Of a DNA stretch of 2,827 nucleotides, positions 1,763-2,827 are shown in pieces; within the stretch, counting starts at the first letter, position 1, and each line of letters starts with the position of its first letter. The position numbers and the translations under genes were made by a program. Origin of the DNA: Enterobacteria phage CUS-3. The stretch is from sequence record FN394992.1. One strand, given 5' to 3'. The notes under the pieces are model-generated. The model did not search any database. It was given only the letters and a program-made list of their open reading frames with translations, and had not been told where the DNA came from.

Positions 1763-2179
1763 NNNNNNNNNNNNNNNNNNNNNNNNNNNNNNNNNNNNNN
1801 NNNNNNNNNNNNNNNNNNNNNNNNNNNNNNNNNNNNNNNNNNNNNNNNNNNNNNNNNNNNNNNNNNNNNNNNNNNNNNNNNNNNNNNNNNNNNNNNNNNN
1901 NNNNNNNNNNNNNNNNNNNNNNNNNNNNNNNNNNNNNNNNNNNNNNNNNNNNNNNNNNNNNNNNNNNNNNNNNNNNNNNNNNNNNNNNNNNNNNNNNNNN
2001 NNNNNNNNNNNNNNNNNNNNNNNNNNNNNNNNNNNNNNNNNNNNNNNNNNNNNNNNNNNNNNNNNNNNNNNNNNNNNNNNNNNNNNNNNNNNNNNNNNNN
2101 NNNNNNNNNNNNNNNNNNNNNNNNNNNNNNNNNNNNNNNNNNNNNNNNNNNNNNNNNNNNNNNNNNNNNNNNNNNNNNN
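1763..2179. other. N-run of 417 nt (139 codons); must contain the tailspike 3' end and stop, the intergenic region, and possibly the true 5' end of the downstream acetyltransferase
   Basis: Seen directly. The tailspike frame is still open at 1762. The first readable codon after the run is an in-frame ATG (2180-2182) with no visible upstream context. Confidence 0.9.
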
Positions 2180-2827
2180 ATGTCGTTTTCCGTTGATGAT
2201 AATGGATCAGGTAATATTTTTGTATGTGGAGATCTTGTAAATAGCAAAGAGAATAAAGTTCAGTTCAATGGAAACAATAACAAACTTATTATAGAAGATG
2301 ATGTTGAGTGTCGATGGCTTACCGTAATATTTAGGGGTGATAATAATTACGTAAGAATACATAAAAACAGTAAGATTAAAGGTGATATTGTCGCAACAAA
2401 AGGTTCAAAAGTTATTATCGGTAGAAGAACGACAATAGGTGCAGGTTTTGAAGTCGTCACTGATAAGTGCAATGTTACAATTGGCCATGACTGCATGATA
2501 GCAAGAGATGTTATTTTGCGTGCATCAGATGGGCATCCTATATTTGATATTCATAGCAAAAAAAGGATTAATTGGGCAAAAGATATCATTATATCTAGTT
2601 ACGTATGGGTAGGGAGAAATGTCTCTATAATGAAAGGGGTATCTGTTGGAAGCGGATCTGTCATTGGGTATGGGAGTATTGTAACTAAAGATGTGCCATC
2701 TATGTGTGCAGCAGCCGGTAATCCAGCAAAAATAATAAAAAGAAATATAATATGGGCAAGAACGGATAAAGCGGAGCTAATTAGTGATGACAAGAGATGC
2801 TCCAGCTATCATGCGAAGCTCACGCAA
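2180..2827 (+). CDS. Hexapeptide-repeat (left-handed beta-helix) O-acetyltransferase, 3'-partial with uncertain 5' end; candidate phage lysogenic-conversion gene, possibly a NeuO-like polysialic acid O-acetyltransferase
   Basis: Frame 2 is open for 216 codons from ATG 2180 to the window end, with no stop. The C-terminal half has the signature of LacA/Maa/WbbJ/NeuO-type acetyltransferases: IGAGFEVVTDKCNVTIGHDCMIARDVIL...SSYVWVGRNVSIMKGVSVGSGSVIGYGSIVTKDVPSMCAAAGNPAKIIKRN. The gene is strikingly AT-rich (25-37% G+C in three hand-counted 60-nt stretches, against about 50-55% in the terminase and chaperone segments). It sits immediately downstream of the tailspike, the position of serotype-conversion genes in P22-like prophages. 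Confidence 0.8.
   Translation, partial: MSFSVDDNGSGNIFVCGDLVNSKENKVQFNGNNNKLIIEDDVECRWLTVIFRGDNNYVRIHKNSKIKGDIVATKGSKVIIGRRTTIGAGFEVVTDKCNVTIGHDCMIARDVILRASDGHPIFDIHSKKRINWAKDIIISSYVWVGRNVSIMKGVSVGSGSVIGYGSIVTKDVPSMCAAAGNPAKIIKRNIIWARTDKAELISDDKRCSSYHAKLTQ

Follow-up and report, generated by a model that had tools for sequence, protein, structure and literature searches.

The window, by which we mean the whole 2,827-nt stretch of DNA analysed here, is a sequence-typing construct for CUS-3, composed of partial small terminase, siaK1 and neuO sequences with N spacers between them. We are highly confident of the joint reading in which the stretch is a typing record, its 417-nt N-run is a base-for-base spacer, the ATG at 2180 is the true start of neuO, and an AAGACTC array has been omitted at 2184|2185. 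The features on which this reading depends are listed in Table 1.

Table 1. Features of the window from the second siaK1 fragment to the end of neuO
Feature	Position	Strand	Remarks
siaK1 (endosialidase tailspike), partial fragment	1322..1762	+	runs from the last part of the catalytic/tailspike domain into the C-terminal intramolecular chaperone domain
siaK1 3' end, by homology	1763..2026	+	264 nt (87 codons + TAA); remaining chaperone domain
siaK1-neuO intergenic region, by homology	2027..2179	+	153 nt; last part of the N-run
Native neuO start codon	2180..2182	+	CDS 5'-complete in the record; same 417-nt spacing to the siaK1 fragment in genomes
neuO coding sequence, repeat-less 'NeuO+0' form	2180..2827	+	216 codons; TAA stop alone missing
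Junction, site of the (AAGACTC)n poly-psi VNTR in genomes	2184..2185	+	tract absent from the record

The record and its N-runs

In a whole-window megablast search against phage records, FN394995.1 showed 100% identity across all four readable pieces of the window. This record, entitled 'Enterobacteria phage CUS-3 partial proviral terminase gene, siaK1 gene and neuO gene', is from E. coli K1 strain IMT_2470 and belongs to a series of 18 records, each exactly 2827 nt long. The FN records reportedly originate from Mordhorst et al. 2009, Environ Microbiol 11:3154.

The window contains three N-runs, at 439-538 (100 N), 1031-1321 (291 N) and 1763-2179 (417 N, unbroken). N-run coordinates were compared in three of the 18 records of the series, and the two sister records, FN394993 and FN394218, which were fetched separately, had their N-runs at the window's coordinates. 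The sister records also share one annotation: terminase 1..>438, siaK1 <539..>1030, siaK1 <1322..>1762 and neuO 2180..>2827. In this annotation siaK1 is partial at both ends and the CDS of neuO is 5'-complete. Because the same N-run coordinates and the same partial-CDS flags recur in the sister records, the Ns are part of the deposit and not assembly gaps. Since the N-runs sit at fixed coordinates in the three records compared and all 18 share one length, the contact between the ATG and the N-run is a by-product of record construction and not chance. It is next to impossible that the Ns were introduced by masking in the scanning pipeline and that real bases lie under them in the public record. 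Some collections are indeed described as holding masked stretches, but the independently fetched FN394993 and FN394218 carry Ns at the same positions, and an siaK1 that is incomplete at 1762 followed by neuO from 2180 is sensible only if the gaps were deposited.

The three spacers are not of one kind. The 291-N run equals the true distance inside siaK1 in CUS-3. The 100-N run links the terminase fragment to siaK1, and these two fragments matched at separate places in CUS-3 and phiv205-1; therefore, this spacer does not represent a true distance, and the window as a whole is not continuous genomic DNA. The small-terminase fragment (window 1-438) gave no Pfam match, and its naming rests on the record annotation. 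The same fragment showed 96-99% identity to DNA of Klebsiella phage phiKp_30 and Escherichia phage N7.

The region represented by the 417-nt N-run

The region homologous to the longest N-run was read in the complete CUS-3 of RS218 (CP000711, locus L002) and in APEC IMT5155 (locus L003); the typing record of the latter strain, FN394994, is 2827 nt long and shows a 0.1% difference to the window. In both CUS-3 and IMT5155, exactly 417 nt lay between the counterpart of window 1762, the last base of '...TTTGCTAT', and the ATG of neuO. The readable siaK1 fragment upstream of the N-run matched the Pfam families End_tail_spike (7e-33) and Peptidase_S74 (8e-12), the latter match beginning within the fragment, and was colinear with CUS-3 CP000711. 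Window 1762 corresponds to position 954 of L003 and 2447 of L002, and the stop codon of siaK1 lies at 1216-1218 and 2709-2711, respectively. Employing a spacing script, we fetched seven genome loci and used the six with clean arrays. In all six, the siaK1 fragment was separated from the repeat array by 422 nt, i.e. 417 nt plus the ATG and 2 nt, with at most 3 substitutions among the loci.

In both IMT5155 and CUS-3 an AGGA Shine-Dalgarno sequence is located 7 nt before the neuO ATG, at the equivalent of 2169-2172, and the intergenic region finishes with ...AACGTAGGATACTAAT-ATG. Judged from these homologues, the 417 N would replace excluded DNA, namely the 264 nt that complete siaK1 and the 153-nt intergenic region with the ribosome-binding site and promoter of neuO. 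Tandem Repeats Finder (TRF), applied to the 3.6-kb IMT5155 locus, found a single array, located after the ATG, and no repeat in the 417-nt stretch.

The promoter of neuO presumably lies within 2027..2179. A promoter scan of the IMT5155 intergenic region returned 7 promoter-like sites versus 5.1 +/- 2.2 in shuffled sequences, i.e. no enrichment. DsdC influences the transcription of neuO and binds its promoter region in vitro; strong ChIP-seq peaks of DsdC have been reported within and just downstream of the neuO coding sequence (PMC9659370). A perfect 10-bp palindrome, TTGACGTCAA, is present at L003 1284-1293 (window 2092-2101), some 80 nt before the ATG of neuO, and overlaps a -35-like hexamer. 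There is also a 12-codon mini-ORF directly after the siaK1 stop codon (L003 1219-1257). Rfam models were searched for in IMT5155 from the end of siaK1 through the intergenic region to neuO (E <= 1). This gave two matches far under their gathering scores, one of them to a plant miRNA family falling on the repeat array, and both were rejected as chance matches.

The start codon of neuO and the omitted repeat tract

The ATG at 2180-2182 opens a 216-codon frame that runs to the end of the window and starts with MSFSVDDNGSGN. PGAP begins the full-length CDS at the equivalent ATG in the phase-ON genomes of IMT5155 and PE144, and in IMT5155 the equivalent neuO end is directly followed by TAA. Immediately past this start codon, the window and the genomes part. 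CUS-3 reads ATG TT (AAGACTC)x19 GTTTTCCGTTGATGAT, with the array annotated as a poly(psi) domain of 19 copies, and IMT5155 reads ATG TC (AAGACTC)x18 GTTTTCC..., whereas the window reads ATG TC GTTTTCCGTTGATGAT, which is the genome sequence minus the array between 2184 and 2185. The genome pattern is accordingly ATG TC/TT (AAGACTC)n GTTTTCC, compared with ATG TC GTTTTCC in the window. In IMT5155, TRF reported an 18.3-copy array of period 7 with 100% match; on the window, at a minimum score of 30, it reported no tandem repeat, and the record holds no remnant of the array. Direct reading of five clean loci gave arrays of 8-60 AAGACTC copies. According to PMC3046976, the VNTR lies two nucleotides past the start codon, is present in 2-93 copies in natural isolates and encodes RLKTQDS heptads.

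The bases at 2183-2184 are TC in the window and FN394993 and TT in FN394218 and RS218, and the TC/TT polymorphism is also found among genomes. Because records and genomes are polymorphic alike, both bases following the ATG belong to the native sequence. The polymorphism changes residue 2 (Ser with TC, Leu with TT) and tracks CUS-3 genotype groups (window 2183-2184, L002 2868-2869, L009 2183-2184). The lengths agree with this position of the tract: window 539-2827 spans 2289 nt, compared to 2422 nt in CUS-3 (+133, 19x7) and 2415 nt in phiv205-1 (+126, 18x7).

In the genome of the source strain an AAGACTC array would be expected to follow the ATG and TC; it would have been dropped from the record at 2184|2185. 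FN394994, the record of IMT5155, is 2827 nt long without an array, yet the complete genome of IMT5155 has 18 copies; because of this discrepancy within one strain, we regard the omission as editorial. We infer that the depositors left the tract out as its hypervariable length would be useless for genotyping.

Alternatively, the record could be faithful, with IMT_2470 carrying a natural zero-repeat neuO (ATG TCG TTT...) that is always in frame and locked ON. The deposited sequence does read so, and NeuO+0 is enzymatically active (PMC3046976), but we consider such an allele very improbable. All 18 records are 2827 nt long and match the window from the first base of neuO, so that all of them would need zero repeats; the IMT5155 record has this length as well, with 18 copies in the complete genome; no surveyed genome (42 genomes) had fewer than 8 copies; and 2-93 copies are reported for natural isolates in PMC3046976, which cites the 2009 study among others. 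With editorial omission of the array as the preferred reading, the copy number of IMT_2470, and hence its ON/OFF state, is not recoverable from the window. There is only a slight chance that this strain has a permanently ON, repeat-less neuO, or that its 153-nt intergenic region is divergent and contains an extra regulatory element. If true, either the allele or the divergent region would be a minor allelic curiosity in a well-described system.

The first-pass annotation had placed the 5' end of the gene, together with its repeats, inside the masked region, with the ATG as an internal Met or a coincidence, and had suggested that a repeat breaking short-read assembly could explain the gap. That neuO has a tract near its 5' end and that the N-run abuts the first readable codon are both in line with this proposal, and the adjacency of the ATG at 2180-2182 to the 417-N run was seen directly in the window. 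As proposed, moreover, a heptanucleotide tract just after the start, with a copy number that sets the frame, is present in genomes and described in the literature (PMC3046976). A true start and tract under the Ns is nevertheless extremely improbable. The 417 N are filled completely, in each of the clean loci, by 264 nt of siaK1 followed by 153 nt of intergenic DNA free of repeats, and the tract lies downstream of the ATG and two further bases. An assembly break would not yield identical N-runs in sister records, in which the run is a fixed spacer at the same coordinates, and the records come from a Sanger-era typing study. For the homologous genomes, a start and tract upstream of this ATG are already refuted: judged from these, the masked stretch supplies a ribosome-binding site, leads to a conventional start codon and contains no repeat tract. 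The start itself, which had been described as unknown, is the ATG at 2180 by the annotation (5'-complete CDS), by the 417-nt spacing in genomes and by the native bases that follow it. The statement that the ribosome-binding site and promoter are unreadable in the window was correct. Overall, the earlier observation was partly confirmed and its interpretation partly supported.

Copy numbers of the tract in complete genomes

We searched 5,426 complete E. coli genomes with window 1322-2827 and sampled the ranked matches evenly; 42 of the sampled places cover both flanks. Of the 42 genomes, 40 had a span longer than that of the window by exactly 7n nt, with n ranging from 8, the lowest value in the survey, to 60 and taking 24 different values. 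These 24 copy numbers were found among 40 genomes with flank identity of at least 99.4%, and genomes with flanks 100% identical to the window had 18, 20, 23 or 44 copies. Different copy numbers beside identical flanks indicate that the tract changes far faster than its surroundings. In-frame copy numbers (multiples of three) were present in 14 of the 40 genomes (35%), approximately as expected for a free-running frame; the remaining 65% were OFF. This proportion agrees with the survey of 64 complete genomes in 2026, which reported 3-53 repeats and 65.6% OFF (PMC13001214). Within a single strain, MS7163, 93% of cells had 21 repeats, 1.9% had 20 and 5.4% had 22 (PMC13001214).

The two exceptions were UM146 (L008), in which 9 perfect copies are followed by an 'AAGGTT' interruption, and 729_270514_x_12 (L007), with a garbled array start. 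These arrays probably reflect sequencing or assembly errors; they could also be real interruptions, which would stabilise the tract.

Some observations concern the distribution of the locus. The query of siaK1 plus neuO matched 196 genomes and neuO matched 161, and about 35 complete E. coli genomes have the siaK1 piece without neuO. The siaK1 fragments (window 539-1762) were 99.7-99.8% identical to tail-fibre genes in four other Escherichia phage records (vB_EcoP_ZX5, vB_EcoP-720R6, Phi05_2388 B and Phi05_1999 B). neuO also persists in degraded prophage remnants, namely in APEC E19019 (L010, NZ_CP126937, 719-3148) at the tRNA-Arg/yfdC site and in IAI39 (L011, NC_011750, 713-2876) next to ybhB/bioA. 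In both remnants an IS3/IS629 element removed most of the tailspike gene, while the ribosome-binding site, the ATG and the array are intact, with 22 copies in E19019 and 8 in IAI39, both OFF.

Reading frame, phase state and annotation

With n = 18 the ORF from the ATG encodes 258 aa (M SRLKTQD x6 SFSVDD...), and with n = 60 it encodes 356 aa. Out-of-frame arrays give ORFs of 49 aa (n = 19), 66 aa (n = 20) and 38 aa (n = 8). A full-length neuO CDS was annotated by PGAP only in the in-frame genomes. In RefSeq, OFF genomes have only a 111-aa 3' fragment named 'acyltransferase' (e.g. WP_011478229.1), called from an internal start, or a pseudogene; such calls are found in L004 (PA45B) at 1364-1699, L006 (19AR1321) at 1280-1615, UM146 (L008) at 1363-1698 and L007 at 971-1150. 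Since OFF genes are annotated as fragments or pseudogenes, annotation-based counts of neuO and protein clusters are split by phase state. These frame consequences were read directly from the sequences, as were the record's identity, the exact spacing, the place of the tract and the length differences of 7n.

Slipped-strand mispairing alters the copy number of AAGACTC, mostly by one unit, and multiples of three are ON; three repeats encode one RLKTQDS heptad (PMC3046976, citing Deszo 2005, Bergfeld 2007 and King 2007). [quoted passage not shown] At other copy numbers translation ends after 38-66 residues (phase OFF). Both the slippage mechanism and the effect of heptads on activity are taken from the literature; they are consistent with the sequence evidence.

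The NeuO protein

The gene had been called neuO-like in the first-pass annotation; it is neuO itself. The translation matched PDB 3JQY, the crystallised NeuO, with an E value of 1.6e-142 and a single substitution among the 215 aligned residues (2-216 of the query, 30-244 of the chain). The offset between query residue 2 and chain residue 30 is due to the Met and four heptads that precede this point in the crystallised construct. His119 and Trp143 (numbering of repeat-less NeuO), which are reported to be catalytically important, are both present in the window translation, and repeat-less NeuO+0 is enzymatically active (PMC3046976).

At the sequence level, the first 45 or so residues are indeed not hexapeptide-like, as had been stated: the Pfam family Hexapep (PF00132) matched residues 136-170 only (42.5 bits vs a cutoff of 27), and a left-handed beta-helix (LbH) match from residue 60 was below threshold. 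Many LbH acetyltransferases were matched in the PDB. The NeuO monomer is predominantly a seven-coil left-handed beta-helix, widest at the N-terminus, and in the four-heptad construct the first 18 residues alone were unresolved in the crystal structure (PMC3046976). Because most of the monomer is helix and only these 18 residues are unresolved, the readable N-terminus should be part of the beta-helix and not a separate extension. An N-terminal extension had been predicted earlier. It does exist, as the poly-psi RLKTQDS domain; the readable residues to which it had been assigned should belong to the helix (PMC3046976), and the variable extension is the heptad domain that the omitted repeats encode.

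Discussion

The phase variation of neuO and the position of its tract are already known, and nothing new is hidden in the N-run. The biology of the heptanucleotide switch has been established since 2005, with a further confirmation in 2026 (PMC13001214). This prophage-borne switch governs O-acetylation of the E. coli K1 capsule and is medically relevant: the modification affects resistance to phage and to neutrophil killing (PMC13001214) as well as recognition by host Siglec receptors (PMC8653822). For users of this record a caution follows, in that the N-runs serve as placeholders and the loss of one hypervariable tract goes unmarked. As the window is a typing construct, 'missing' features deduced from its gaps are artefacts of the record.

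Among known systems, the neuO locus of CUS-3 is the same gene, with 99.5-100% nucleotide identity in CUS-3 and 160 E. coli genomes. In CUS-3 (CP000711) and IMT5155 the gene order is siaK1, a 153-nt gap, neuO and then int/intS on the opposite strand, and the window is colinear with it. In contrast to the neuO copies of complete genomes, the record is without the AAGACTC array and the stop codon, which is a property of the record and not of the gene.

In simple-sequence contingency loci, a repeat with a unit that is not a multiple of three lies near the 5' end of the CDS, and slippage switches translation. Haemophilus influenzae lic1, with the tetranucleotide CAAT, and Neisseria opa, with the pentanucleotide CTCTT, are such loci with intragenic repeats. 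neuO differs from loci of the lic1/opa type in its 7-nt unit and in being prophage-borne. Furthermore, when in frame its repeats encode a functional domain of heptads, by which enzyme activity is graded and not only switched (PMC3046976).

The next-best solved structure was OatWY (PDB 2WLC), the sialate O-acetyltransferase of Neisseria meningitidis W-135/Y, with an E value of 3e-31. Like NeuO, OatWY folds as a left-handed beta-helix and acetylates a sialic-acid capsule, but its acceptor polymer is different and its match leaves residues 1-24 of the window translation uncovered. Within this family, the variable heptad domain is unique to NeuO (PMC3046976).
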